DNA of 39,748 nt. Source: Clostridium sp. CAG:273 (GTDB lineage: Bacteria > Bacillota > Clostridia > TANB77 > CAG-508). Shown here piece by piece: positions 1 through 22,302 of this stretch. A program made the position numbers and the translations under genes. Below the pieces are notes generated by a model. That model saw only the letters and a program-made list of their open reading frames with translations, ran no database searches and was not told the origin of the DNA. The stretch's first letter is position 1. Each line of letters opens with the position of its first letter. The DNA is taken from assembly GCA_000438355.1 (NCBI GenBank), contig FR901446.1, positions 1-39,748 of the forward strand. Reading direction: 5' to 3'.

Positions 1-1258
1 TTCCATTTTCTAAAAAATCATAAATTTTATTAAGTTTAGACTTTTCCATTTCTAATTCTTTTTTTGTATTAGTAATAGATTTTTCAAATATTTTATTATT
101 TTCAGATTTTAAATTATCTTTAAACTTATAATTTATTTTATAATTTTTAAGCCAAATTTTTAATGCTTCAATTATTTTATTTTCTACAATATAGAGTTTA
201 GAACTTATATTATCACATTTAGAATTAGAACACATAAGGATAGCAGGTTTGTTAGTTTTAGTATAAGGTTTTCTTTGCATAGGTTTGCCACATTTTTTAC
301 AAAATACTAAGCCAACTAAAGGATTTTGAATAATACTATTATGATTTACTTTAGGAGCGTTTTGCTTTCTTTTTTCTTGTACTAAGTTCCAAGTTTTTGT
401 ATCAATAATAGATTCATGTAATCCATCATAAATTTCGTAATTGTAATTACGAGGTCTACTAATAATAAGATGACCATTTTGAGTTTTCTTTTTTTGACAT
501 CTCCTATTCCAAACAATTTTTCCAATATATGCAGGATTAGATAAGATATCTTTAACAGAAGAAATAGACCACTCATCTGCAATTCTAGGTTTCAAATTTA
601 AATTATTTAATTTTTTTGCAATTGAGTTTATAGTAAAATTTTCAAATGCATATAATCTAAAAATTTCTTTAACAATAGGTGCTTCTTGGGGATTTATAGA
701 TAAGGTAAATCCTTTTGAATTTTTTAGTTTAACCCTATTATAACCAAAAGGAGCAATATTTCCAACATATTTTCCTTCTTGACACGAAAGTTGACGACCC
801 CTTTGAAGACGTCTATTTATAGTCTTATATTCTCTCCTAGACATAAATAAGCCAAATTCAAAATATTCTTCATCAAATTCATTATCTGGATCATATGTTT
901 TAACAGGAGTAATTATTTTTGTATGAGAGTATTTAAATGCTTTTAAGACTAATCCTTGATCTGCAGTATCACCACGAGCAAGTCTTTCTACCTCTACAAC
1001 CAATATACCAGTCCACATTTCATTTTCAACATCTTTTAGAAGTTTTTGCATTTCTTTTCTTTCACTAATTGTTTCACCACTTACAACTTCCCTGTATATT
1101 TTTCCAATAGTTAAGTTTCTTTTTTCAGCTAAAGTAGTTAAAATTTTTTCATGCCTTGCTAAAGTTTCGCCTTCTCCATATTTTTCGGATTCTATATCTT
1201 CTCTAGATTTTCTTAAATATATTGCATATATGCCATTTTGCACATTTACTACTCGCAT
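1..1258 (-). CDS. Large serine recombinase (N-terminal resolvase domain; C-terminus runs off the left window edge)
   Basis: Hand translation of the reverse strand from ATG 1258..1256 gives MRVVNVQNGIYAIYLRKSREDIESEKYGEGETLARHEKILTTLAEKRNLTIGKIYREVV..., the catalytic-serine N-terminus of serine recombinases. Further on (about 310..190) the same frame reads LVFCKKCGKPMQRKPYTKTNKPAILMCSNSKCDN, a zinc-ribbon-like Cys cluster typical of the large (phage-integrase/SpoIVCA-like) subfamily. The ORF is not in the track because the frame stays open to the window edge. Confidence 0.85.
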   Translation of the reverse strand, partial: MRVVNVQNGIYAIYLRKSREDIESEKYGEGETLARHEKILTTLAEKRNLTIGKIYREVVSGETISERKEMQKLLKDVENEMWTGILVVEVERLARGDTADQGLVLKAFKYSHTKIITPVKTYDPDNEFDEEYFEFGLFMSRREYKTINRRLQRGRQLSCQEGKYVGNIAPFGYNRVKLKNSKGFTLSINPQEAPIVKEIFRLYAFENFTINSIAKKLNNLNLKPRIADEWSISSVKDILSNPAYIGKIVWNRRCQKKKTQNGHLIISRPRNYNYEIYDGLHESIIDTKTWNLVQEKRKQNAPKVNHNSIIQNPLVGLVFCKKCGKPMQRKPYTKTNKPAILMCSNSKCDNISSKLYIVENKIIEALKIWLKNYKINYKFKDNLKSENNKIFEKSITNTKKELEMEKSKLNKIYDFLENG

Positions 1259-1332
1259 AATGAACTATAACATTATACGAACTCCTTTCTTTTAAGATTT
1301 AAAAAATTAAGGTTATATTTTATAGCAAGTTA

Positions 1333-1473
1333 CTATAAAGAAGTATATATTTTTTCTATTAAGTTGATTATGATATTATTTATATATTCTTTTTGATTAG
1401 CTGCATTTTCTACTATATAATCATCATAAAATTTTACTTTTGTATTTTCTAAAATATATTCGTCTATTATCAT
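1333..1473 (-). CDS. Small hypothetical protein (46 aa from ATG 1473; track ORF extends to 1521) just upstream of the recombinase gene
   Basis: Open frame MIIDEYILENTKVKFYDDYIVENAANQKEYINNIIINLIEKIYTSL lies on the recombinase strand and ends about 75 nt before its ATG. A GGGG patch a few nt upstream of ATG 1473 is a weak SD. No recognisable motif; it may be non-coding. Confidence 0.25.
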   Translation of the reverse strand: MIIDEYILENTKVKFYDDYIVENAANQKEYINNIIINLIEKIYTSL

Positions 1474-1609
1474 ACAAATCGCCCCATTTAACTTTATGAA
1501 AAAAACATAAAAAAATACCAAAATATTTAATTACAAAAGTAAATTCCAGTTTTAAAATAAATTTGGAATTTATGTTTTTAATTTATTCAATTGATAAAAC
1601 ATAAAAAAC

Positions 1610-1651
1610 AAGTTAGATGGTTTGAAAATTATCTAACTTATGTGATATAAT
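1610..1651 (+). promoter_or_regulatory. Sigma-A-type promoter with an overlapping perfect 9-bp inverted repeat (candidate operator) upstream of the hydrolase gene
   Basis: TTGAAA (1622..1627), 18-nt spacer, then TGaTATAAT extended -10 (1643..1651). AAGTTAGAT (1610..1618) and ATCTAACTT (1631..1639) are exact reverse complements and bracket the -35. Confidence 0.45.
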
Positions 1652-1688
1652 CCAAAAAAATATAAATAATATTGCAAAGGAGGACAAT

Positions 1689-2663
1689 ATGTGTACATGT
1701 ATAAATTTAAAAACAAAAGATAATTATTTTGGGAGAAATTTGGATTTAGAATATCGTTTTGATGAAAAAGTAGTTATTACTCCAAGAAACTATGAATTTA
1801 AATTAAAAAATAAAAAAAAAATATGTACTAAGTATGCTCTAATTGGAATGGCTACAACTTTTGAAGATTATCCATTGTATGCTGAAGCGACGAACGAAAA
1901 AGGATTATCTATGGCAGGATTATATTTTCCTGGAAATGCACATTTTTATGATGAGAAAGATGGTAAACTAAACTTAGCACCATATGAGCTAATACCTTAT
2001 TTTTTAGGAAATTATTCAAGTATAAAAGAAATAAAACAAGAATTAGAAATGTTAAATATTACAAATATACCATTTTCTGAGAACCTACCAACTACTGATT
2101 TACATTGGATGATGTGTGACAAAAACGAATGTATTGTTATTGAACAAATGGAAGAAGGTTTAAATATTTATGATAATCCACTCGGAGTGCTTACTAATAA
2201 TCCGCCATTTAATTATCACTTAGCCAATATTAATAATTATAGTAATTTAACTCCATATTATGAAAAAAGTAAATTTTCGGATAAAATAGAGTTAAAACAA
2301 TATGGTCAGGGAATGGGAGCAATAGGATTGCCAGGAGACAATTCACCTGCATCAAGATTTATAAGAGCTAGTTTTAATAAATTAAATTCAAATTGCAAAG
2401 ATGATGAGAAAAGTTCTATAACTCAATTTTTCCATATATTAGATTCAGTTGCTATGGTAAAAGGAACTACTATAACTAAAGAAAACAAGGATGATATTAC
2501 AACTTATTCTTGCTGTATAAATACAGATAAGGGTATTTATTATTATAAAACATATAACAACAATCAAATTGTGGCAATTAAAATGACAGAAAAAGAAAAA
2601 AATATGGACAAATTGTCAATTTATAATTTAATAGAAGAACAACAAATAAAATATGAAAATTAA
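1689..2663 (+). CDS. bsh: Choloylglycine hydrolase family protein (bile salt hydrolase / penicillin V acylase type Ntn hydrolase)
   Basis: The protein starts MCT.. (Cys2 N-terminal nucleophile). Motifs FGRNLDLEY, NEKGLSMAGLYFP, TDLHWMM, GVLTNNPPFNYH, GLPGDNSPASRFIR and GIYYYKTYNNNQI match the Clostridium perfringens CBAH-type family along the whole length. AGGAGG SD lies 7 nt upstream. Confidence 0.88.
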   Translation: MCTCINLKTKDNYFGRNLDLEYRFDEKVVITPRNYEFKLKNKKKICTKYALIGMATTFEDYPLYAEATNEKGLSMAGLYFPGNAHFYDEKDGKLNLAPYELIPYFLGNYSSIKEIKQELEMLNITNIPFSENLPTTDLHWMMCDKNECIVIEQMEEGLNIYDNPLGVLTNNPPFNYHLANINNYSNLTPYYEKSKFSDKIELKQYGQGMGAIGLPGDNSPASRFIRASFNKLNSNCKDDEKSSITQFFHILDSVAMVKGTTITKENKDDITTYSCCINTDKGIYYYKTYNNNQIVAIKMTEKEKNMDKLSIYNLIEEQQIKYEN

Positions 2664-2725
2664 AAAAAATAATAAGCTTAGATAAATGGAAATAAGTAAA
2701 AAATTATTAGTATTGACAACATTGT

Positions 2726-3205
2726 GGTACAGAAGAATTGGCACACTTAGAAATGGTTGGAACAATAGTGCATCAATTAACAGAAGGGCTTTGCCCAGAA
2801 GAAATAAAAGCAGCAGGATTAGGTGCATATTATACAGACCATGGGGTAGATGTATATCCACAGTCAGCAGCAGGAGTTCCATTTACAGCAGCATATATTG
2901 CAGCAAAAGGAGATCCTATAGCAAATCTTCAAGAAGATTTAGCAGCAGAACAAAAAGCAAGGGCGACATATGAAAAATTAATTGACTTATGTTGTGACGA
3001 CCCAGATGTTTTAGACCCACTTCGTTTCTTAAGAGAAAGAGAAGTAGTACACTTCCAAAGATTTGGAGAAGCACTTCGTGGAGTACAAGATAAACTAGCA
3101 GAAAAAAGATTTTTTATGAATGATACAAATATGGCTAACATGATGAGTAATAACTGTAATGGATGCAGTGATTGTAATAATGCAAATAATTGTGGATGCA
3201 ATTAG
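2726..3205 (+). pseudogene. cotJC: Manganese catalase / spore coat protein CotJC family, 3' fragment only (about 60 N-terminal residues missing)
   Basis: GTEELAHLEMVGTIVHQL..AAGVPFTAAYIAAKGDPIANLQEDLAAEQKARATYEKLI..LRFLREREVVHFQRFGEAL matches the central and C-terminal parts of CotJC-type Mn catalases. An in-frame TGA at 2714..2716 sits upstream. The only possible start is TTG 2738, which has no SD. The bsh stop is at 2663, so there is no room for the missing N-terminal helix. Confidence 0.8.
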
Positions 3206-3221
3206 ATTGAAATAATAAATA

Positions 3222-3262
3222 AAAGACTCTTATGTAATTTAAAATAAGAGTCTTTATTTATT
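3222..3262. terminator. Bidirectional intrinsic terminator between the convergent catalase fragment and thioesterase gene
   Basis: AAAGACTCTTAT (3222..3233) pairs perfectly with ATAAGAGTCTTT (3244..3255). The stem is flanked by an A-run and a T-run. Confidence 0.75.
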
Positions 3263-3265
3263 TGA

Positions 3266-4000
3266 TTAATATAATTTTACAATTGCATGTAATTGTTTAT
3301 TATCTAAACTTTTAATTGTTACATAATGAGCATTATCTATTTTTGAATATAGACATTTTACAGTGTCTCCTAATCGGATAGATGTTTTATACATAATTTC
3401 TAAATTATTACATTCTGGACTATTATAAACATCTTCAGGCAAAGCTTCATAAGCTAAATATAAATAATTTAAATTGTGCATATGCTTGTTTACATCAATA
3501 TCTCTTCTTTGAGTTTTATAAATATATTCAGAGAAATACTCTTTAGGCTCGATTAATTTTTTTATATCACTATTATCATCACTTGAAAAAACACTTTTAT
3601 CCTCTGGAAAATATTTATTAATTATTTCATCAGTTATAGTAGTAATGGTTTCTCTTTTTATATCTATTAAAGTCCATTTAGTTGTAGCAATACAAATTAT
3701 ATTATCATTTTTATCTAGTATTTCAAAATCACGTAATGTAGTAAACTTTTTAGAAGGTCTTGACCATGTACGAACTTTTATAATATCTGCATATTTTACT
3801 CTTTTTAAAATTTTAACTTTCCATGCTAAAAGAATCCAAGATAGACCTGTATTATTGATATCATTAAATCCATAACCTGCAACGTCTGAATGCTTGCAAG
3901 CAGTATCTTCTAATAAACTAAGAATTCCCATATTAGTAATAAAACCATTAGGTGCAACATGTGATACATCTATAGTATATTCTTTTTCAAAAAATGCCAT
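3266..4000 (-). CDS. Acyl-[acyl-carrier-protein] thioesterase
   Basis: 244 aa double hot-dog layout. The C-terminal half has RRDIDVNKHMHNLNYLYLAYEALP, which resembles the R.lDiD.N.HV.N..Y..w motif of bacterial/plant FatA/B-type acyl-ACP thioesterases. Confidence 0.8.
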   Translation of the reverse strand: MAFFEKEYTIDVSHVAPNGFITNMGILSLLEDTACKHSDVAGYGFNDINNTGLSWILLAWKVKILKRVKYADIIKVRTWSRPSKKFTTLRDFEILDKNDNIICIATTKWTLIDIKRETITTITDEIINKYFPEDKSVFSSDDNSDIKKLIEPKEYFSEYIYKTQRRDIDVNKHMHNLNYLYLAYEALPEDVYNSPECNNLEIMYKTSIRLGDTVKCLYSKIDNAHYVTIKSLDNKQLHAIVKLY

Positions 4001-4305
4001 TTAAAAACCTTCTTTCTCTATTTTTCGAAACAGATTATAGCATAAAAATATAAAAAATACAAATTGCGTGAAAATATATTTTTGTAGTATAATTATTATG
4101 TTTCTATACTAAAAGTGAAAATGAAATAATGCAAAATAATTAGAAATTGAATTTAATAACTATAATAACAAGCTAGATTATCTAATTTATAGATAAATGT
4201 ATAAAACAAAAAAATATAAAAACATAGAAATATAAAAAAAGATTGGAAAGTATAAAAATAAAATAATTTAGAAATTAAAAGATAAATAATGGAGATGAAT
4301 AATAA

Positions 4306-5187
4306 ATGAAAGAACTAAATAGTTGTACAATATGTCCACACAACTGTAAAATTAATAGAAATAATGGGCAAATAGGAAGATGTAGAAGCGGAGATAAAGT
4401 GAAAATTGCTTTAGCATCTGTACATAATTATGAAGAACCATGTATAAGTGATAAAAATGGCTCTGGAACAATATTTTTTAGTAATTGTAATTTAAGTTGT
4501 ATTTATTGTCAAAACTATAAAATAAGTCAATTAGGAAAAGGTTATGAACTATCTGTGGAAGAATTGGCGAATATTATGCTAAAACAACAAGAAAAAGGTG
4601 TAAATAATATAAACTTAGTAACACCAACAATGTATGTTTATCAAATAATAGAAGCTATAAAAATTGCAAGAAAAAGAGGATTAAAGATTCCAATTATATA
4701 CAATACAAATGGATATGAAAATGTTAAAACAATACAACACTTAAATGGATATGTAGATATATATTTGCCAGATTTAAAATATTACTCTAATGAGATATCT
4801 AAAAAATACTCTAAAATTGATAACTACTTTAAATATGCTACAGAAGCTATAAAAGAAATGTATAAACAAGTAGGGAGTCCAATATTTGATGAAAATGGAA
4901 TAATAAAAAAAGGATTAATAATAAGACATCTTGTTTTACCAAATCATTTGCAAAATAGCAAACATATATTAAAATGGATAAAAGAAAATATGCCAGAAGA
5001 TACATATGTTAGTGTGATGGCACAGTATTTTCCTACATATAAAGCAAAAGAAGATAATCTAATAAACAGAAAATTAAATAAAAAGGAATATAGAGAGATA
5101 GAAGAATTTTTATATACACTAAACTTAGAAAACGGTTATATGCAAGAACTTGGAGAACATGAAGAAGAATATGTACCAAACTTTTAA
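4306..5187 (+). CDS. Radical SAM protein, PflX-like (pyruvate formate-lyase activase-related)
   Basis: CNLSCIYCQNY is a CxxxCxxC radical SAM cluster. An N-terminal extra Cys motif CTICPHNCKINRNNGQIGRC is present. Length (293 aa) and layout resemble the COG1313/PflX family. Confidence 0.8.
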   Translation: MKELNSCTICPHNCKINRNNGQIGRCRSGDKVKIALASVHNYEEPCISDKNGSGTIFFSNCNLSCIYCQNYKISQLGKGYELSVEELANIMLKQQEKGVNNINLVTPTMYVYQIIEAIKIARKRGLKIPIIYNTNGYENVKTIQHLNGYVDIYLPDLKYYSNEISKKYSKIDNYFKYATEAIKEMYKQVGSPIFDENGIIKKGLIIRHLVLPNHLQNSKHILKWIKENMPEDTYVSVMAQYFPTYKAKEDNLINRKLNKKEYREIEEFLYTLNLENGYMQELGEHEEEYVPNF

Positions 5188-5316
5188 TTGGTAAAATAAA
5201 AATATAATTAATAGTAAAAAATATAAATATTTAAGAAATATTACGATATTTATGAATACCAAATTAAAATGTTTATAAATATTAAATTCTTTAGGTAAAA
5301 TTCAGATTTATGAAAT

Positions 5317-5420
5317 AGTAAATTTAAATATTATAGGTTTTAAATAAATATGTCACAAGTAAATTTAAGTAATATAGGCTTAAAATGGATATGTTACAAG
5401 TAAATTTAAATAAATTATTG
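5317..5420. repeat. About 2.4 tandem copies of a 41-bp AT-rich repeat upstream of thyA
   Basis: Unit A (5317..5357) is AGTAAATTTAAATATTATAGGTTTTAAATAAATATGTCACA. Unit B (5358..5398) is AGTAAATTTAAGTAATATAGGCTTAAAATGGATATGTTACA, identical at 34 of 41 positions by hand alignment. A third unit from 5399 shares the first ~15 nt. Confidence 0.7.
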
Positions 5421-5492
5421 AAAATAAAATTTACTTATGATAAATTTATAAAAGATTAATTGTAAAAAATATTGTTATTGGAGGAATAAAAT

Positions 5493-6350
5493 ATGACACA
5501 AGCAGATAAAAATTTTATTGAAACATGTAAAGAAATAATAGAACATGGATATTCTTCAGAAGGAACAGGAGTAAGAACTAGATGGCAAGATGGAGAAGAA
5601 GCAAATTATATTTCAATTGTTGGAGTTACAAATAAATATGATGTAGAAAAAGAATTTCCAATGATTACACTTAGAAATAACACAAAAACAGTAATAAATG
5701 CTATAGACGAAATATTATGGATATGGCAAAAAAAATCTAACAATATTAATGATTTAAATTCACATATATGGGACCAATGGGCAAATGAAGATGGATCACT
5801 TGGGAAAACATATGGATATCAATTAGGAAAAAAGTATAAATTTAAAACAAAAGAAGGTATACAAGAGATGGACCAAGTTGACTATGTTTTATATTTACTA
5901 AAACATGACCAAGCAAGCAGACGTATAATGACAAATCTTTTTAACCATGAAGAACTAAAGGACATGAACTTAGAACCATGTGCATATGTAACACAGTGGC
6001 TAGTAAAAGATGGAAAATTACATTTAATATTAAATCAACGTTCACAAGATATGCTAGCTGCAAATGGATGGAATACAATGCAATATGCAGCATTAATGCA
6101 TATGTTTGCCCAATGTGCAGGGTTAAAAGTAGGAACTTTAACACATAATATAGGAGATTGTCATATATATGATAGACATGTACCACTTGTAAAAAAATTA
6201 ATAGAAGCCAAGCCAATGGATGTAACACCAAAACTAATTATAAAAAATCCAACAAAAAATTTCTATGAATTTAAAGTGGAAGATTTTGAAATTGAAGGAT
6301 ATGATTATAACAAAGAAGTAAAAATAGGAAAATTTCCAGTAGCAATATAA
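5493..6350 (+). CDS. thyA: Thymidylate synthase (ThyA)
   Basis: The protein is co-linear with Bacillus ThyA-type enzymes: MTQ.DK.., EILWIWQKKSNNINDL, DQVDYVLYLLKHDQASRRIM, LEPCAYVTQW (catalytic Cys), NQRSQDM and NIGDCHIYDRH. GGAGG SD is present. Confidence 0.95.
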   Translation: MTQADKNFIETCKEIIEHGYSSEGTGVRTRWQDGEEANYISIVGVTNKYDVEKEFPMITLRNNTKTVINAIDEILWIWQKKSNNINDLNSHIWDQWANEDGSLGKTYGYQLGKKYKFKTKEGIQEMDQVDYVLYLLKHDQASRRIMTNLFNHEELKDMNLEPCAYVTQWLVKDGKLHLILNQRSQDMLAANGWNTMQYAALMHMFAQCAGLKVGTLTHNIGDCHIYDRHVPLVKKLIEAKPMDVTPKLIIKNPTKNFYEFKVEDFEIEGYDYNKEVKIGKFPVAI

Positions 6351-6458
6351 GAGAGAATGTAATATAAAAAATTAATAAAATATTAGATTGAATTAGTAAA
6401 ATAAAAATTAAAAACAAGTAAAATACATAAAAGCCAATAAAGAAGGAGATTAATTGTA

Positions 6459-6947
6459 ATGTTAAGTATTATAGTAGCTGTAGCAAACAATAATGTAATA
6501 GGAAAAGATAATAAGCTAATTTGGCATTTACCAGAAGATTTAAAGAGGTTTAAAGCTTTAACAACTGGACATACTATTATAATGGGAAGAAAAACTTTTG
6601 AGTCATTAGGAAGAGTATTACCAAATAGAAAACACATTGTATTATGTAATGATGTAAACTTAAATATAGAAAATGAAAATGTAGAAGTTTTATCGGATAT
6701 AAGTATGTTAGAAAAATATATAAACTCTGCTGAAGAAAACTTTGTTATAGGTGGGGCAACAATATATAAATTATTACTACCAAAAGCAAGTAAATTATAT
6801 ATAACAAAAATAAACCAAAACTTTGAAGGTGACGCATTTTTTCCAGAGATAAATCAAGAAGAATGGGAAATAGAATCTAAAGAGATTGGAATAAAAGACG
6901 AGAAAAATCCATATGATTATGAATATATAAACTATGTAAGAAAATAA
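6459..6947 (+). CDS. folA: Dihydrofolate reductase
   Basis: MLSIIVAVANNNVIGKDNKLIWHLPEDLKRFKALTTGHTIIMGRKTFESLG is the canonical DHFR N-terminus. The protein is 162 aa and lies immediately downstream of thyA. Confidence 0.93.
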   Translation: MLSIIVAVANNNVIGKDNKLIWHLPEDLKRFKALTTGHTIIMGRKTFESLGRVLPNRKHIVLCNDVNLNIENENVEVLSDISMLEKYINSAEENFVIGGATIYKLLLPKASKLYITKINQNFEGDAFFPEINQEEWEIESKEIGIKDEKNPYDYEYINYVRK

Positions 6948-6951
6948 TAAA

Positions 6952-6982
6952 AAGTCTATTCATTTTAAAAGTGAATAGACTT
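6952..6982 (+). terminator. Intrinsic terminator after folA
   Basis: AAGTCTATTCA (6952..6962) pairs with TGAATAGACTT (6972..6982), 5 nt after the stop. The downstream tail is T-rich but interrupted. Confidence 0.55.
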
Positions 6983-7124
6983 ACATATTTATTCATCTAC
7001 GCATTTATTATTCGCAAGTAGAGTTGCGAAAGACATTTACTACAATAATTATATGAAGTTTTACCTAGAATGTCAATATTATAGTGTTAATATTATTACA
7101 AAAATATATAAATCTATTCAATTT

Positions 7125-7727
7125 TTAATAAGCTATATTGCCTAGAGTAACTGCATATTGTTCGTAATTTGGCATATATGTACCAATCATTTTCCAAAAA
7201 TTTTTTGTACGAATTTTGTATTTTAAATGGCAGAATTCATGTAAAATAACATATTCTATAGTTTTTTCATCATATGCAACTATATCTGGATTAATTGTTA
7301 TAAAACTATTCTCTACATTGCAGTTAGCTAAAGATTTGTTTATTCTTTTTATTTCATAATCTTCTGGTGCTAATCCAGTTTCTATACGAACTTTTTCCAT
7401 AATTTTTTCTATTTCTGTTTCTGCAATTTTATCATACAATTTTTGTGTTAATACTTTTAATATTTGTTCTTCTTGAAATTTTTTATATTTGTTTGGAAGA
7501 ATAATTTCTAAAGTTTGATTTTTAACATTCATTGTAGGTACTTTTACATTTTTATAATATAAATTTATATTATGCTTTATACCTAAGATTTTAATAGTGC
7601 GAACATTGAAATTTACAGAATTACCTATAAAAATTGGATTATTTATAATAGATGCACAAACATTACTTTTTATAGTATTTGCAACGCTTCTAGATTTTGT
7701 AGTTGCTTTAATTTTTAATAAATTCAT
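7125..7727 (-). CDS. YgjP-like (DUF45 / M48-related) metal-dependent hydrolase
   Basis: The C-terminal HEFCHLKYKIRTKNFWKMIGTYMPNYEQ matches the HExxH..FW......P.Y signature of YgjP-type proteins. I prefer the start at ATG 7727 (MNLLKIK) because GGAGGT lies 6 nt upstream. The track ORF extends to 7808 without an SD. Confidence 0.75.
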   Translation of the reverse strand: MNLLKIKATTKSRSVANTIKSNVCASIINNPIFIGNSVNFNVRTIKILGIKHNINLYYKNVKVPTMNVKNQTLEIILPNKYKKFQEEQILKVLTQKLYDKIAETEIEKIMEKVRIETGLAPEDYEIKRINKSLANCNVENSFITINPDIVAYDEKTIEYVILHEFCHLKYKIRTKNFWKMIGTYMPNYEQYAVTLGNIAY

Positions 7728-7991
7728 ATTAATACCTCCAAACATTTGATATACGAACGACTGTTCTAAAACTATAAATATAATACAAAAAAATGTTCGT
7801 GTTGTCAATAGATTTTTTACAAAAATTTTAAAAAAGTTATATATGCTTAGAAACTGTAAGAAAGAAATTGCTAAATATATAAAAATGTAAAATTTATTGC
7901 TAATTTTTAATAATTTAAACTTTAAATAAGTATTATAAATTAAATTGTATAAATGTATTAAAAACAGAAAAAATAATATAGGGTGAATAAA

Positions 7992-8996
7992 ATGTTTATA
8001 CCGAATTTAATTTATTATGAAAAAGATGCATTAAATTATTTGTTAGGAAAAGAATTATTTGATAAATACAATGAAAAGAAAATTAAATTTATAGAGATAG
8101 AAAATCATAATAATATTGAGGAATTACGAACAAAAGAAAATAAAGAATTTGCTAATTTAAAAAGAAATTTAATTATAGGAATAAGAAAAACACATAAATT
8201 TGTTCCTAATTATAAAGTGTCAAATTATTTAGTGCCATATACATCTTCTGGTTGCACAGCAATGTGCTTATATTGCTATTTAGTTTGTAACTATAATAAA
8301 TGTTCATATTTGAGATTATTTGTTAATAGAGAAGAAATGCTTGATAAAATAAAAAGGGTTGCAAATAAAGAAGAAAAAGATTTAGTTTTTGAAATAGGGA
8401 GTAATAGTGATTTAATTTTGGAAAATACAATTACAAATAATTTGGTATGGACGATAGAAGAGTTTAAAAATAATCCAAAAGGATTACTAACATTTCCAAC
8501 TAAATTTGATATGGTAGACCCAATTTTACCATTAAATCATAAAGGAAAAGTAATTGCTAGGATGAGTGTTAACCCGAAAGAAATAATAAGAACAATAGAA
8601 ATAGGAACTTCACCATTGGAAAAGAGAGTACAAGCAATAAATAAACTTGCCGAAGCAGGTTATAAAATAGGTATTTTAATTGCACCTGTAATATTAGTGA
8701 AAAATTGGAAAATACAATATGAAGAATTGTTAAAATTTTTAGAAAATAATTTAAGTGAAAAAGCAAAGAAAAAAATATTTTTTGAAATAATATTTATGAC
8801 ATATAGCTATGTACATCGAATGATAAATAGTGAAGCATTTCCAACACTTGTTAATTTATATAACCAAGATATAATGACAGGTAGAGGAAAAGGAAAGTAT
8901 TGCTACAGACCAGATGTTAGAAAAGAGGCAGAAAAGGATATACTAGAACTTATGCATAGATATTTTCCAAATAATGAGATAAAGTATGTATCATAA
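7992..8996 (+). CDS. splB: Spore photoproduct lyase (radical SAM)
   Basis: MFIPNLIYYEKDALNYLLGKEL.. is co-linear with Bacillus SplB (..FVPQLVYIEPRALEYPLGQEL..). The CTAMCLYCY radical SAM triad, GTSPLEKRVQAINKLAEAGY and the C-terminal FPNNEIKY also fit. ATG 7992 is preferred over GTG 7983, which overlaps the SD (AGGGTGA). Confidence 0.9.
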   Translation: MFIPNLIYYEKDALNYLLGKELFDKYNEKKIKFIEIENHNNIEELRTKENKEFANLKRNLIIGIRKTHKFVPNYKVSNYLVPYTSSGCTAMCLYCYLVCNYNKCSYLRLFVNREEMLDKIKRVANKEEKDLVFEIGSNSDLILENTITNNLVWTIEEFKNNPKGLLTFPTKFDMVDPILPLNHKGKVIARMSVNPKEIIRTIEIGTSPLEKRVQAINKLAEAGYKIGILIAPVILVKNWKIQYEELLKFLENNLSEKAKKKIFFEIIFMTYSYVHRMINSEAFPTLVNLYNQDIMTGRGKGKYCYRPDVRKEAEKDILELMHRYFPNNEIKYVS

Positions 8997-9188
8997 GCAG
9001 AAAATTAGTTAATGAAAGGAAATAGTTTTAAAAGTATTGAAAAATAAAATTTAATATAGTAGAATAAATAATGTATATAGCAACACAAAACAAGCACAAA
9101 TAATGTTGAAAAAATGCGAAAAGAGTATTTCAAAATAAACAAAAAGAGGTACGCAAAAATGACAAAAGCTAAAACCGTTGAGACTGTA

Positions 9189-9208
9189 AGAGAGAGAGAG
9201 AGAGAGAG
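9189..9208. repeat. (AG)10 dinucleotide microsatellite in the leader upstream of the pilin-like gene
   Basis: Read directly: ten uninterrupted AG units occupy 9189..9208. Confidence 0.97.
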
Positions 9209-9312
9209 CTATACTTTACTAACATAGAGTATAGCTTAGTAAGATGTGGCAACAAAATTAATTTAATAAAAATCCAAGAAGGTAGAAATACCTTTATTGG
9301 TGTTATAAAAGA

Positions 9313-9347
9313 GACAGACTATAAATAAAAATAGCCTGTCATTTTTG
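9313..9347 (+). terminator. Intrinsic terminator / attenuator immediately upstream of the RBS of the pilin-like GLUG gene
   Basis: GACAGACTAT (9313..9322) pairs with ATAGCCTGTC (9331..9340), giving 9 bp and one mismatch, with an 8-nt loop. The tail ATTTTTG follows. The SD AAGGAGAGGAG begins about 10 nt later. Confidence 0.5.
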
Positions 9348-9374
9348 CATTTAAAAGAAGGAGAGGAGAACAAT

Positions 9375-12221
9375 ATGGAAGATAAAAAAGGAGATTTACA
9401 AAGTAATGGTGTGCTAAAACAAAACTTATTATTACAAACAAGTAAAAAGATAAACAGAAATCTAAATAAAAAAATAACAAATCAAAGAGGCATTACATTA
9501 TTAGCATTAGTTGTAACAATAGTTATTTTATTAATATTATCAGGAATAACAATAAGCAGTGTATTTGGGGATAATGGAATTATAGAAAAAAGTAAAATTG
9601 CAAAAAACGAAGTAGAAGTAGGAACAGTAAAAGAAGCTCTAAAACTATACTATTTAAGTAATGATATAGGACAAAAGGAACAAGATCCGGTAAATGGATT
9701 AATGCCAAAAGAAGAGATAACAGATGAAACTCTATTAAATATAATAATGGAAAACCAGGCAGGAATAGGAAACATAAAGCAGATAGAATATAGTAGATTA
9801 TATAAACTTGATTTATCAGTATTAGGAATTCCAAATATAGAAGAAAACAAATACTTTATGGATATAGGAACAAAAATAGTCTATATAAATAATGGAATAA
9901 AATTAAGTAAAGGCATAACATATGTATTAGAAGAAAAAGAAATATGGCCAGTATACTTAAGAGCAGAAGAAATAGAAGAAGGATTTAAATTAATAGCAAA
10001 TGTAGAAGATAATACAAATGTTAGAAACTATAACTTTTATATAGGCGAAGAACTATACAAAATAGTTTCAGGAAATGGAACAGAAGCACAAATAAATGTA
10101 ACAGATAAAGATTTTGGAGAATATGAATGTTATGTAAAAGTTAATAGAATGGGAGGAACGAGTGACAGTTCACCAAGCATTGTAGCAGAAAATTATTGTA
10201 TAAAAAATGCAAATGATATGGAAGTATTTAAAAATATGGTAAAAGAGGGAAATACATTTGCGGGAAAAAGAGTAAAGGTAGTAGCAGACATAGACTTAGG
10301 CGGAAGTAAGCAAAATAGAAATTGGGAGCCAATAGGAATAGAAGGAACAAGTTTTTCAGGCACATTAGAAGGAAATAATCATAAAATAAGTAATATATAT
10401 AATAAAGAGGTAAGCGGAAATTATCAAGGACTATTTGGAGTAGCACAAAATGCCACAATACAAAATATAATAATAGAAGGAGGACAAGTTCAAGGAAGGG
10501 AGTTTGTAGGAGGAATAATAGGAAATGGCAAAGGAACAAATATAATAGATTGTGAAAACCATGCACAAATAATAGCCCAAAAAGGAAATGTTGGAGGAAT
10601 AGTAGGAAGAATAGAAGAAAGTGGAAAAGTAGAACAATGTACAAATTATGGAAGTGTTAGTAGTAGTGGATATATAAATGATGTATTAGATACATTTATA
10701 GGAGGAATTATTGGTTCTTCATATAATGACATAATAATAACTGGCTGTATAAATCAAGGAAATATAACAAGTGAATATTCCGCAACAGGGGGAATTATAG
10801 GTGCAGCATTTGGAGATGGCAATAATAGTGTAAATAATTGTGAAAATAAAGGAACAATTCAAGTTACAGGAAAAAACATTAATAATGATGCAACTCTTGG
10901 AGGAGTGTTAGGTTATATTATAAATGGACAAGTAGATAATTGTAAAAATCAAGGAGAAGTAATAGGAGAAGGAAATAAAATCGGAGGAGTAATGGGCATA
11001 GCTGATGGAATAAATTTTGTAAGTTATTGCACAAATATTAATACAGTTACACAAAATAATGGGTTTGAAATAGGCGGAATTATAGGATTAAATAGTTTAG
11101 AGTCAAAAGTTTTTTATTGCACAAATAGTGGACAAATTAATGCAAATAGCTTTGAAGAAGAAACAGGAAATACTATAGCAGGGGGAATTATAGGAAATTC
11201 ACAAGGAACTATTAATGAATGCATAAATAATGGAAATGTGATAGCAAATGGAGCATATGTAGGTGGCATTGCAGGAAACACAATAAGCAGCATTACAAAT
11301 TGTCATAATGAAGGAATTATAACAGTTAAACAAAAGAATTCTGCTAAAAGAGTTTGTGTAGGGGGAATTTCAGGGCAGTTAGATACAGAAATTCTAAAAG
11401 AAGATGCAAAAATAGAAAACTGTTATAATATGGGGAATGTCTATGGAATAGGAATTGATGTAGCAGGAATTACAGCAATAAATATAGGAGGAACAATTAA
11501 AAATTGCTATAATACAGGAAGTGTTACTACCGAAACAGGAGTTGCAGGAGGAATTGTATCAGAATCTTTTAAAACTTCAGATGAAAGACTTCCAGTTATA
11601 GAAAACTGCTATAATACAGGAGCAGTAGAAGCAAAAGGAATAGTTGAGATGGAAGGATATATTGACTCTATTGCAGGAGGAATTGTAGCGGGAAACCATG
11701 GAATTACTAGAAAATGTTGGAACGAAGGTAAAGTTTATGGAATATCGGTAGTAGGAGGAATTGTAGGGACAAGTCTTAAAACAGTAACAGAGTGCTATAA
11801 TTTAGGAACTATAGAATCAAAAGGAAAAAATACCAATGGAGACTCTGTAGTAGGAGGAATTATAGGGAATTTAAACCAAAATGCAGATTTAAGTTATTGT
11901 TATAATAAAGGTATAGTGAGTGCAGACTATAATATGGTAGGAGGAATTGTAGGTTTTCAAGAAGCAAATTCAACAGTAAGTAATTCCTATAATACATTTC
12001 AAGTAGAGCAAAAACAAGAAAGTTCAATGCTAGTAGGAAGAACAGAAGGAACAGCTACTCTGAATAATTGTTATTATTTAGGAACAACTACATCAAATGA
12101 ATCCAGGACAGAAGCAGATATGAAAACACAAGCATTTGTTGATTTACTAGGTGGAAGTACCTATTGGAAATTAGATAGACAAAATCAAAATAATGGATTT
12201 ATTATTTTAAATTGGCAATAA
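9375..12221 (+). CDS. Large surface protein with a type IV pilin-like N-terminal hydrophobic segment and multiple GLUG-motif (GGIxG) repeats
   Basis: ATG 9375 lies behind the AAGGAGAGGAG SD (the track ORF starts at an upstream TTG). The N-terminus ..NQRGITLLALVVTIVILLILSGITISSVFGDNGIIEKSK resembles a prepilin leader plus hydrophobic helix but has Ala, not Glu, at +5. From about residue 380 there are about 20 repeats centred on VGGIIG/IGGIVG/AGGIVA with conserved Cys-x-N spacers (C.N.G), as in GLUG-motif proteins. Confidence 0.8.
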   Translation: MEDKKGDLQSNGVLKQNLLLQTSKKINRNLNKKITNQRGITLLALVVTIVILLILSGITISSVFGDNGIIEKSKIAKNEVEVGTVKEALKLYYLSNDIGQKEQDPVNGLMPKEEITDETLLNIIMENQAGIGNIKQIEYSRLYKLDLSVLGIPNIEENKYFMDIGTKIVYINNGIKLSKGITYVLEEKEIWPVYLRAEEIEEGFKLIANVEDNTNVRNYNFYIGEELYKIVSGNGTEAQINVTDKDFGEYECYVKVNRMGGTSDSSPSIVAENYCIKNANDMEVFKNMVKEGNTFAGKRVKVVADIDLGGSKQNRNWEPIGIEGTSFSGTLEGNNHKISNIYNKEVSGNYQGLFGVAQNATIQNIIIEGGQVQGREFVGGIIGNGKGTNIIDCENHAQIIAQKGNVGGIVGRIEESGKVEQCTNYGSVSSSGYINDVLDTFIGGIIGSSYNDIIITGCINQGNITSEYSATGGIIGAAFGDGNNSVNNCENKGTIQVTGKNINNDATLGGVLGYIINGQVDNCKNQGEVIGEGNKIGGVMGIADGINFVSYCTNINTVTQNNGFEIGGIIGLNSLESKVFYCTNSGQINANSFEEETGNTIAGGIIGNSQGTINECINNGNVIANGAYVGGIAGNTISSITNCHNEGIITVKQKNSAKRVCVGGISGQLDTEILKEDAKIENCYNMGNVYGIGIDVAGITAINIGGTIKNCYNTGSVTTETGVAGGIVSESFKTSDERLPVIENCYNTGAVEAKGIVEMEGYIDSIAGGIVAGNHGITRKCWNEGKVYGISVVGGIVGTSLKTVTECYNLGTIESKGKNTNGDSVVGGIIGNLNQNADLSYCYNKGIVSADYNMVGGIVGFQEANSTVSNSYNTFQVEQKQESSMLVGRTEGTATLNNCYYLGTTTSNESRTEADMKTQAFVDLLGGSTYWKLDRQNQNNGFIILNWQ

Positions 12222-20484: not shown

Positions 20485-22302
20485 ATGATGAAACATAAAA
20501 ATATTTCGATTGTTTTTATTTCATTATTAATCATAGCAATTCTACTAATGATGAGTCCAAGAATGCTAGCATACACAATCCCAGCAGTAGAAAATTTAAA
20601 AGTTGAATATACTGATGGAACAGCAAACTTAAGCTGGTCAAGTGTAACAAATGCTGATGGATATGAAGTTTTTGTTAATATTCCAGGTTATGGTTATGCT
20701 AATATTGGTTCAGTATCTGAAAATAAAGTTTCTGTAATAGGAATTTCAGAAGACACAGCATATTCTGTAAAAGTAAGAGCTTATGAATATGTAAATAACA
20801 TAAAAGAAGTTGGAAACTTTTCTAATGAAGTAGACTTTGATACAAACAAAGAAGCGGATTTAGATAGAGTAACAGGTGTAAAAGTAGAAACAACAGGAAA
20901 TATTGCAAAAGTAGAATGGAATGCTGTTTCAGAAGCAACTGGTTATGAGGTATATGTAGACATACCAAATTATGGATTTTTAAAAATTGGTAATGCAACA
21001 ACAAATTCAGCAGTATTAATGGGATTCCAAACAAATGGAAAATATGCTGTAAAAATAAGAGCTTTTAAAGGAACAAATGGAAAAGATGGTTATGGAGAAT
21101 TTTCGTCATCAAAAACATTTTATATAAATAGTGAAGACCTAGATGATGACAAAAAAGAAGAATTAGACCAAGTTAAAGATTTAGAATATAACTTAGAAAA
21201 AGATAAAGTATATTTAAATTGGTCTAAAGTAAAAGATGCAGACGAATATATTGTTTATATATCAATAAATGGTGGTAACTACAGTGAAATAGGAAGAGTT
21301 ACAGGAAGAGAAGCAACAATAAATGATTTAAGAGAAAATACTACATATAAAGTAAAAATCGCAGCATATAATAAACATGATGATGTTTATGGAAAAGAGT
21401 CTAATGTTATAACTTTTAAAACAGACAAAAGTTTTGAAGAAGAAATAGAATTAGACAAGGTAAGAAATTTATCTGTAGATATAGATGGAAATAGAGCTTA
21501 TTTAGATTGGTCTAAAGTAAAAGATGCAGACAAATATGAAATTTATTTATCTAAAAATGGAAAAGCATATAGTTTAGCAGGAACAGTAACAAAAAATAGT
21601 GCAACAATTTCAGATTTAGACTATAACACATCATATAAAGTAAAAGTAAGAGCATATAATGAAAAATATGATGAATATGGTACATATTCAGACATAAAAA
21701 GTTTTAAAACAGAAGAAGATGACACAATAGAAGTTGGAAAAGTAAAAAATATAGATATAGATGTAAATGGAAACAGAGTAGATTTAGATTGGTCAAAAGT
21801 AACTAATGCAGATGAATATGAAGTTTATTTATCTAAAAATAGTGGATCTTATGACTTAATTGGTACAGTAAAAAATAATAATGCAACAATTTCTAATCTA
21901 TCATATAATACATCATATAAAATAAAAATAAGAGCATATAATAAGAAATATGATGAATATGGTGCGTATTCAGATATAGAAAGCTTTAAAACAGAAAAAT
22001 ATAATAGTAGTATAAACAACGAAGAAGTTGGAAAAGTAAAAAATGTAAATGCAAGTGTAACAGGAAGTACAGTATATTTATCTTGGAAATCTGTGCCAGG
22101 TGCAGTAAAATATGAAATACAATTTACAGTACCAGGATACGGAGGAGCTACATCAATATGGTCAGAAGGACCAGGCAGAACAATTTCTGGATTAACAAAT
22201 AAAACATCAAATTATACAGCAAGAGTAAGAGCATATAAATATGTAGATGGACGTTTAGTGCCAGGAGAATATTCAGATGTAGTTAGATTTAAAGGAAAAT
22301 AA
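20485..22302 (+). CDS. Secreted protein with six tandem fibronectin type III-like domains
   Basis: An N-terminal signal peptide (KHKNISIVFISLLIIAILLMMSPRMLA) is followed by six units of about 94 aa. Each has the pattern ..L.WS.V..A..YE.Y........IG......A.I..L...T.Y.VK.RAY, i.e. an FN3-like W/Y/RAY core. No LPXTG or other anchor is visible. Confidence 0.8.
   Translation: MMKHKNISIVFISLLIIAILLMMSPRMLAYTIPAVENLKVEYTDGTANLSWSSVTNADGYEVFVNIPGYGYANIGSVSENKVSVIGISEDTAYSVKVRAYEYVNNIKEVGNFSNEVDFDTNKEADLDRVTGVKVETTGNIAKVEWNAVSEATGYEVYVDIPNYGFLKIGNATTNSAVLMGFQTNGKYAVKIRAFKGTNGKDGYGEFSSSKTFYINSEDLDDDKKEELDQVKDLEYNLEKDKVYLNWSKVKDADEYIVYISINGGNYSEIGRVTGREATINDLRENTTYKVKIAAYNKHDDVYGKESNVITFKTDKSFEEEIELDKVRNLSVDIDGNRAYLDWSKVKDADKYEIYLSKNGKAYSLAGTVTKNSATISDLDYNTSYKVKVRAYNEKYDEYGTYSDIKSFKTEEDDTIEVGKVKNIDIDVNGNRVDLDWSKVTNADEYEVYLSKNSGSYDLIGTVKNNNATISNLSYNTSYKIKIRAYNKKYDEYGAYSDIESFKTEKYNSSINNEEVGKVKNVNASVTGSTVYLSWKSVPGAVKYEIQFTVPGYGGATSIWSEGPGRTISGLTNKTSNYTARVRAYKYVDGRLVPGEYSDVVRFKGK

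Follow-up and report, generated by a model that had tools for sequence, protein, structure and literature searches.

Here, we present an analysis of a 39,748-nucleotide stretch of DNA (the window) from Clostridium sp. CAG:273 (assembly GCA_000438355.1, contig FR901446.1, positions 1 to 39,748, forward strand), in which cotJC, the gene for a spore-coat protein of the manganese catalase family, is interrupted by an integrative island. We found that window positions 1-2725 are the right-hand 2.7 kb of a 12.9-kb island inserted within codon 65 of cotJC, and that strains within a single species differ in whether they carry it. With a probability of about 80%, the island not only splits cotJC but also has ends that rebuild the gene and the capacity for precise excision.

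The preliminary description of the window, made from the sequence and its open reading frames (ORFs), had claimed that a CotJC homologue lacking its N-terminal part starts at position 2726 behind an in-frame stop, continues for about 160 codons and marks the right junction of an element that carries a large serine recombinase. These claims hold in every part. Two features define the junction:

Window 2726..3205, plus strand: 3' part of cotJC, codons 62-220 plus stop (Pfam, solved structures, DNA homology).
Window 2710..2761, plus strand: attR, consisting of the element arm (2710-2725), the shared core (2726-2745; GGTACAGAAGAATTGGCACA) and then the gene arm.

The fragment begins at window position 2726 on the plus strand with GTEELAHLEMVGT... 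and is open to its stop codon, while in-frame stops lie directly 5' of it, including a TGA four codons ahead of the GGT. It matches positions 62-197 of the 284 positions of the Pfam profile Mn_catalase (PF05067; E value 9.4e-32), and solved structures of manganese catalases align with it only from their residue 62-63 onward. Similarly, DNA homology to the intact cotJC locus L011 starts exactly at 2726 and amounts to 96% across the gene and its downstream flank. The same junctions are present in at least 20 independent assemblies. Membership in the CotJC/manganese catalase family is supported by the Mn_catalase domain on both pieces of the gene and by the cotJA and cotJB domains upstream. As a possible refutation, the preliminary description had named the reading frame to the left of 2726 (LLVLTTL), which might have been catalase sequence in a frameshifted pseudogene. 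We reject this option for the window's lineage; the region belongs to the element and forms one arm of the attachment site; a related element has conserved it, and it pairs as an inverted repeat with the opposite element end. The frameshifts and stops of a decaying pseudogene were also absent: the 3' piece is intact, with zero stops or frameshifts, in 17 of 17 interrupted contigs of the window's lineage, and the 5' piece has neither in the eight of eight cases examined, over the portion contained in the loci.

The missing 5' piece of cotJC, predicted to lie beyond the left edge of the window and probably together with cotJA and cotJB, was found there. A look-up of the exact recombinase of the window (P0261) returned ten contigs of 64-218 kb from different samples, which match the window over 2.7-11.2 kb at 99.86-100% identity. 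All ten have the order 3' piece of cotJC, hydrolase, recombinase, 3108-amino-acid protein and 5' piece of cotJC, with a distance of 12,888-12,898 bp between the cores of attL and attR; the attL core sits 10,162 bp to the left of window position 1. The product of the 5' piece has 68 amino acids and ends in ...LNDIGTEEL(V/A)H followed by a stop. A position of this piece between the protease gene and the recombinase, as in a 3-kb mini-element, was considered and rejected, because the piece is absent there and lies beyond the protease gene. cotJA and cotJB are immediately ahead of the 5' end of cotJC in the same-species loci L011 and L094. The complete order is cotJA, cotJB, the 5' piece of cotJC (68 amino acids), attL, the genes for the M26 metalloprotease, the recombinase, the 46-amino-acid ORF product and the bile-salt hydrolase, attR and the 3' piece of cotJC.

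The comparison with an uninterrupted relative, which the preliminary description had also proposed, proved possible within the species. Among full-length homologues, P0001 (217 amino acids, 96% identity) matches the fragment best; it is encoded on L011 in the order glgP-pyk-cotJA-cotJB-cotJC-thioesterase-radical SAM-thyA-dfrA. The genes to the right of cotJC in L011 are those to the right of the window fragment, and because this flank is 98.5% identical over 4.2 kb, L011 and the window belong to one species. An unoccupied attB, in the form of the intact cotJABC of L011, exists within this species. A scan of genome contigs with full-length CotJC matched intact loci of other species only. Joined in silico, the same-species 5' part and the window's 3' part give an uninterrupted, in-frame CotJC of 220 amino acids, which differs from P0001 by four substitutions and a three-amino-acid indel.

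Mutual comparison of attR, attL and attB delimited the attachment sites as follows:

attB (L011): AATGACATA GGTACAGAAGAATTGGCACAC TTAGAAATGG
attL: AATGACATA GGAACAGAAGAATTGG(T/C)ACAT TAATGATGTCAATAG
attR (window 2717 onward): CAACATTGT GGTACAGAAGAATTGGCACAC TTAGAAATGG

The junction pattern of attB is AATGACATAGG[A/T]ACAGAAGAATTGGCACACTTAGAAATGG, that of attP is CAACATTGTGGTACAGAAGAATTGG[T/C]ACATTAATGATGTCAATAG, and the core common to both junctions, which had been expected to be short and identical, measures roughly 20 bp. Rebuilt from the two element arms (GTATTGACAACATTGTGGTACAGAAG followed by AATTGGTACATTAATGATGTCAATAG), attP spans 52 bp and forms an imperfect palindrome, symmetric at 17 of 26 positions. 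Its dyad centre lies between window positions 2735 and 2736, on the dinucleotide GA (2735-2736), which is the predicted crossover dinucleotide and falls in codon E65. A related element in another species (L117) has host and element arms that diverge on either side of a common GAA; this confines the exchange to codon E65, in agreement with the dyad centre. Judged from these sites, exchange at the central GA would restore an uninterrupted cotJC of 220 codons. Core-sharing attL and attR sites and an imperfectly palindromic attP form the architecture expected of a large serine recombinase; attachment sites of this kind are likewise summarised in PMC5595907. As a separate observation, L109 has three direct copies of a GGCTAAAA(A)TTTTAGTTAAA-like sequence at 21372, 21332 and 21298, spaced 34-40 bp apart, just inside attL and between attL and the protease promoter; these may be putative binding sites.

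Four genes in all were called in the 12.9-kb island. Besides the protease gene, which lies to the left of the window, they are represented in the window by the following features:

Window 1..1257, minus strand: first 419 codons of the large serine recombinase gene (gene start at 1257; runs off the left edge).
Window 1333..1473, minus strand: conserved ORF of 46 amino acids (MIIDEYILENTKVKFYDDYIVEN...), directly upstream of the recombinase; candidate recombination directionality factor.
Window 1622..1651, plus strand: sigma-70-type promoter match for the hydrolase gene (TTGAAA, 18 nt, TATAAT, with TG); consensus match only.
Window 1689..2663, plus strand: choloylglycine (bile-salt) hydrolase, 324 amino acids, cargo (Pfam CBAH, E value 3e-101).

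Phage structural, lysis and replication genes are absent from the gene list of the island, and a PHROGs scan of two of its genes had the recombinase, as an integrase, as its sole match. Genes for type IV secretion or conjugation are likewise absent among the four genes, and the island has neither transfer genes nor a recognisable origin of transfer. It is neither prophage-like nor large.

The full-length recombinase has 519-524 amino acids (L001, L107-L116) and contains the Pfam domains Resolvase (PF00239), Recombinase (PF07508) and Zn_ribbon_recom (PF13408), consistent with its initial classification. Its residues 9-508 align with residues 18-524 of SprA/YokA of SPbeta (9dxh; E value 6e-45), with the motif YLRKSRED pairing with YLRRSRQD of SprA, and no other solved structure matches the recombinase strongly; the alignment with SprA covers the full length. 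The recombinase also matches the PHROG 95 integrase (E value 4e-98), and its top NCBIfam match is CcrB, at 95 bits far under the cut-off of 900. With the recombinase domains, attachment sites that share a core, an attP with dyad symmetry and an unoccupied attB, the island has the properties of a large-serine-recombinase element. Compared with the 81% identical recombinase of L117, the ratio of nonsynonymous to synonymous substitution rates (dN/dS) is 0.16.

The 46-amino-acid ORF has homologues in the same position at the same cotJC site in L117 (47 amino acids, 77% identity) and L118 (48 amino acids), and its dN/dS relative to L117 is 0.18. Because the ORF recurs in position and its dN/dS of 0.18 compares with 0.16 for the recombinase, we conclude that it is a real gene that evolves with the recombinase. 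It has no match in Pfam, NCBIfam, PDB or PHROGs and no detectable similarity to SprB or any known directionality factor; the 47-amino-acid homologue in L117 has one weak PHROG match (E value 0.053), to a family of unknown function. We infer that its product is a candidate directionality factor, which would permit excision. As for the expression of the recombinase, the only strong ribosome-binding site ahead of it (AAAGGAG; window 1258-1300, minus strand) suits a two-codon mini-ORF (ATG TTA TAG), and the ATG of the recombinase lies 12 nt further on without an evident ribosome-binding site of its own. This layout suggests a low or coupled translation of the recombinase.

The hydrolase gene ends at 2663, as had been described, and its product clears the cut-off of the NCBIfam equivalog bile_salt_hydro (435 bits vs. 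350). The putative promoter of the gene is the best sigma-70 consensus match in window 1-3400, with 11 of 12 positions and an extended -10 element. In one sample, this cargo is disrupted; the hydrolase gene is broken into calls of 271 and 50 amino acids (L112 8582-9555). The protease is a secreted protein of 3108 amino acids with a signal peptide, a dockerin domain, two N-terminal regions of the M26 immunoglobulin A1 (IgA1) metalloendopeptidase type and an HETGH motif.

The island is not the only element that uses this operon. An element that carries a type IV secretion system (T4SS) integrates at the same GTEE core of cotJC:

L094 3288-13321; L097 10184-20219; L099-L106; L009 11038-20975: T4SS-carrying element.

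Its genes encode MetK, a DUF3560 protein, a coupling protein, a pilin, TrbL, PrgI, a VirB4-like ATPase, an M23 peptidase, a sortase and a SpaA-type protein. Based on L009, we predicted that its insertion creates a chimeric 5' product ending in ...GTEEYAHKEDA before the stop; this exact sequence of 72 amino acids was then found in the protein collection, and the contigs encoding it carry cotJA-cotJB and the left end of the T4SS-carrying element. The proteins of this element are 100% identical in two host species, which implies a recent movement of the element between them. On a 64,040-bp contig (L009/L111), the 5' piece of cotJC is followed by the 12.9-kb island, a hybrid site (island arm, GGTACAGAAGAAT and an arm of the T4SS-carrying element) and the T4SS-carrying element, i.e., the two form a chromosomal tandem array. 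An array of this kind points to a recombination event that involved a half-native site, similar to site-specific accretion. A reading of L009, where T4SS genes come after the hydrolase gene, as an excised circle of one large conjugative element with the window genes was rejected, as the contig continues into the 5' piece of cotJC.

N-terminal CotJC fragments in the protein collection point to the same usage. Among the 120 best fragments, 59 break off directly behind GTEE and continue into foreign tails, of which there are at least 25 different ones, and 40 break off behind YYTDHG, where the conserved foreign tail VGLE(S/Y)IQKEF follows (P0125, P0127, P0128, P0159, P0170, P0193 and others). A further element, which carries genes for HTH_36, DUF4313, MT-A70, three DNA methylases and ParB_N, lies inside a window-type 3' piece, directly after ...GATTTAGCAGCAGA (EDLAA), in L003 (11245 onward) and L107 (1-8288), so that cotJC is in three pieces in these samples. 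Finally, L097 has, at the same locus as the T4SS-carrying element, a 5.9-kb element (4040-10000) in the last codons of cotJB, between ...EEPWP and WEG, with genes for RadC, a 705-amino-acid protein, small ORFs and a different large serine recombinase of 534 amino acids. Altogether, there are at least four insertion sites in cotJB/cotJC, i.e., GTEE, YYTDHG and EDLAA in cotJC and the last codons of cotJB, and the cotJ operon of some strains contains two or three elements simultaneously. The related element in L117 (3084-10120), in a different species, is a 6.9-kb relative of the island at the same site with AAA_18, MatE, GNAT and RhuM as cargo. In a third species (L118-L120), which also has a recombinase at the GTEE site, the cotJ locus has an inverted chromosomal context relative to the window.

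How might the island be maintained in a gene for a spore-coat protein? Because it has no transfer genes of its own, we consider that it most likely persists as a gene-intervening element of the gin/skin type. In such a model, the island would supply the bile-salt hydrolase and the protease in growing cells and would be cut out in the mother cell when cotJC is needed, with the SprA-like recombinase carrying out the attL x attR exchange and the 46-amino-acid protein, as a directionality factor, permitting excision. The arrangement is that of the sporulation gene-intervening class, in that a coat gene presumably expressed in the mother cell, cotJC, is interrupted within cotJA-cotJB-cotJC and excision in silico restores the frame; in Bacillus subtilis, cotJ is expressed in the mother cell under the control of sigmaE. 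That excision would be timed to sporulation is a tentative proposal, to which we give somewhat less than an even chance, by analogy with SprA/spsM, SpoIVCA/sigK and GirC/gerE. In its favor, an intact, full-length, SprA-like recombinase and a conserved small ORF have been kept although the island is incapable of self-transfer, and no good sigma-70 match is present immediately upstream of the recombinase module. Moreover, gin in gerE is a documented precedent for small non-phage intervening elements that depend on a serine recombinase and a small factor to restore their target gene (PMC5595907), and the argument of Suzuki et al. that small intervening elements are retained owing to their role in restoring the gene (PMC6957869) can be carried over to the island.

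Several observations weigh against a developmentally excised, gene-restoring island. Simple sigmaE or sigmaK patterns are absent upstream of the 46-amino-acid ORF and the recombinase, with the reservation that the consensus of this clade may differ. cotJC is not known to be required for spore formation in B. subtilis. Similarly, mutation of the cotJC-type catalase genes in Clostridioides difficile causes no major coat defect (PMC11222575). The attP junction of an excised circle, searched for with exact and family-degenerate patterns, had 0 matches in the Joint Genome Institute (JGI) metagenome contigs, a weak argument because the representation of the species in this collection is unchecked. 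The 3' pieces of the 17 interrupted contigs fall into three alleles, the sole polymorphisms of which are two nonsynonymous singletons, counts that are too small to show or exclude constraint. Among relatives, the 5' piece of cotJC in L117 has a +1 frameshift (GACCGGA instead of the expected GACGGA, or GATGGA as in L011), and three independent samples have a frameshift in the zinc-ribbon region of the GTEE-site recombinase (L118-L120, 10383-12018). These frameshifts indicate that a permanently split cotJC is tolerated in some relatives. Lastly, the island shares its site, and in one case a tandem array, with the T4SS-carrying element, and selection for mobility alone could keep the recombinase intact.

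Some of these points lead to the most serious alternative, namely an ordinary mobilisable island that uses cotJC merely as an attB, excises rarely or in connection with transfer, for instance when carried along with a co-resident T4SS-carrying element after tandem accretion, and leaves cotJC inactivated in its carriers with no link to sporulation. We regard this alternative as only slightly less probable than a coin toss. It would readily account for a T4SS-carrying element at the same site with identical proteins in two hosts, for the tandem array of this element and the island, for the many foreign tails behind GTEE among the best N-terminal fragments, for relatives with a frameshifted cotJC 5' piece or recombinase and for the lack of a sigmaE/sigmaK motif upstream of the recombinase module. 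It fits less well with an island that has no transfer genes or recognisable transfer origin and yet keeps its recombinase and small ORF under purifying selection, or with two cotJC halves that are intact across the contigs of the window's lineage. Moreover, elements in mother-cell genes with this class of recombinase have repeatedly been found to excise during sporulation (PMC4191935, PMC5595907, PMC5025042). Importantly, mobility and developmental excision are not mutually exclusive; SPbeta does both.

Two further alternatives were considered. If it were a dead, immobile remnant, cotJC would be a two-piece pseudogene too young to have decayed. The very low diversity of the lineage (three alleles among 17 3' pieces) makes the lack of disabling mutations weak evidence against this, and decay is present in related elements; however, the recombinase and the small ORF are intact with dN/dS values of 0.16-0.18 relative to a relative whose recombinase is 81% identical, the arms of the attachment sites are intact and symmetric, and the presence/absence within the species together with the part that the junction plays in the tandem array points to recent recombinase activity, making a dead remnant improbable. 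An assembly artefact or a frameshifted gene, with the N-terminus of CotJC misassembled or hidden in another frame, has a negligible probability. No supporting case was found, the short database entry P0123 being a frameshifted read-through of the intact allele; identical junctions occur in the independent assemblies, the sequence to the left of 2726 is an element arm, and the 5' piece is present on the same contigs. Compared with these alternatives, we prefer an island that splits cotJC and can be excised precisely.

A broader view, which we consider rather unlikely but worth stating, is that the cotJ operon of these gut Clostridia is a multi-site docking platform for recombinase-driven cargo cassettes and that the island is a domesticated developmental switch. 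The bile-salt hydrolase and the IgA-protease-like enzyme would be expressed during growth, the mother cell would then remove the island plus any other resident elements to rebuild cotJC, and gut-adaptive genes moving between strains would have a safe harbour in a spore-coat gene. Even apart from this view, the multi-site and sometimes tandem occupancy of cotJB/cotJC by many different elements makes it possible to study in nature whether sporulation genes are favoured as landing sites for the reason that a terminal cell can repair them.

The kind of arrangement described here is already known. Programmed DNA rearrangement has a textbook example in elements that interrupt sporulation genes and that a serine recombinase removes; to our knowledge, those studied so far are, with few exceptions, prophage remnants from Bacillus and a small number of clostridia. 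cotJC itself has already been cited as an integration target, being listed as such by Abe et al. (2013) as far as the citing preprint conveys (bioRxiv 10.1101/2021.11.22.469490). In the searchable literature, the scope of which does not extend to Abe et al. (2013), no description matches the island in composition, host or attachment site.

Among described systems, gin, which lies in gerE of Bacillus cereus ATCC 10987 and depends on the recombinase GirC and the small factor GirX, comes closest (PMC5595907). Like gin, the cotJC island is a non-phage island with a serine recombinase and short identical cores that splits a small mother-cell sporulation gene, and where gin needs an additional small factor, the cotJC island has the 46-amino-acid candidate. 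Unlike gin, which has 28.6 kb, 31 genes and three recombinases and for which excision during sporulation has been demonstrated, the cotJC island comprises 12.9 kb with four genes and a single recombinase; the cargo points to gut adaptation, and excision is predicted. SPbeta in spsM of B. subtilis depends on SprA and SprB (PMC4191935, PMC5499854) and resembles the island in having a SprA-like recombinase and in splitting an envelope or coat gene that can be restored by attL x attR recombination. However, SPbeta is an active prophage of 134 kb, the 46-amino-acid ORF product shows no recognisable resemblance to SprB, and the target gene and host clade differ. In the case of the skin element in sigK, the recombinase is SpoIVCA, and the directionality factor of the C. 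difficile skin is CD1234 (PMC5025042). The preliminary description had called the element skin-like, and this holds for the presence of a large serine recombinase element within a mother-cell gene; it does not hold for a prophage origin or large size, and mother-cell-specific excision is a proposal. In addition, skin is prophage-derived and hits an essential regulator, whereas cotJC encodes a structural or enzymatic coat protein, the loss of which is probably tolerated. The island can also be compared with staphylococcal cassette chromosome (SCC) elements with Ccr recombinases and with the accretion of integrative and conjugative elements and islands, in which elements accumulate in tandem at one site. 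Here as there, one attB serves several unrelated cargo cassettes that have related recombinases, and tandem arrays occur. Unlike in SCC elements, the recombinase falls far short of the Ccr cut-off (95 vs. 900 bits), and the insertion interrupts a sporulation gene instead of lying at the end of orfX.

The cotJC island is distinguished by its very small size, its gut-related cargo, its presence/absence within a species and the use of the cotJ operon by multiple elements at multiple sites. It has only four genes, and its host is an abundant uncultured gut lineage, in which the bile-salt hydrolase and the 3108-amino-acid enzyme of the M26 IgA1-protease family are plausible gut-colonisation factors. 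As a compact and defined recombination unit comprising the recombinase, the candidate 46-amino-acid factor, the 52-bp attP and attB, it might also serve as an integration tool.

Outside the island, to the right of the gene for spore-photoproduct lyase, window 9345-12221 holds a large gene, the length of which varies between strains and which occurs with or without a faint Glug match. Comparison of the window with L001, L004, L006 and L112 gave sizes of 948, 819, 810 or 794 amino acids for its product, and we conclude that this is a hypervariable surface-protein locus.

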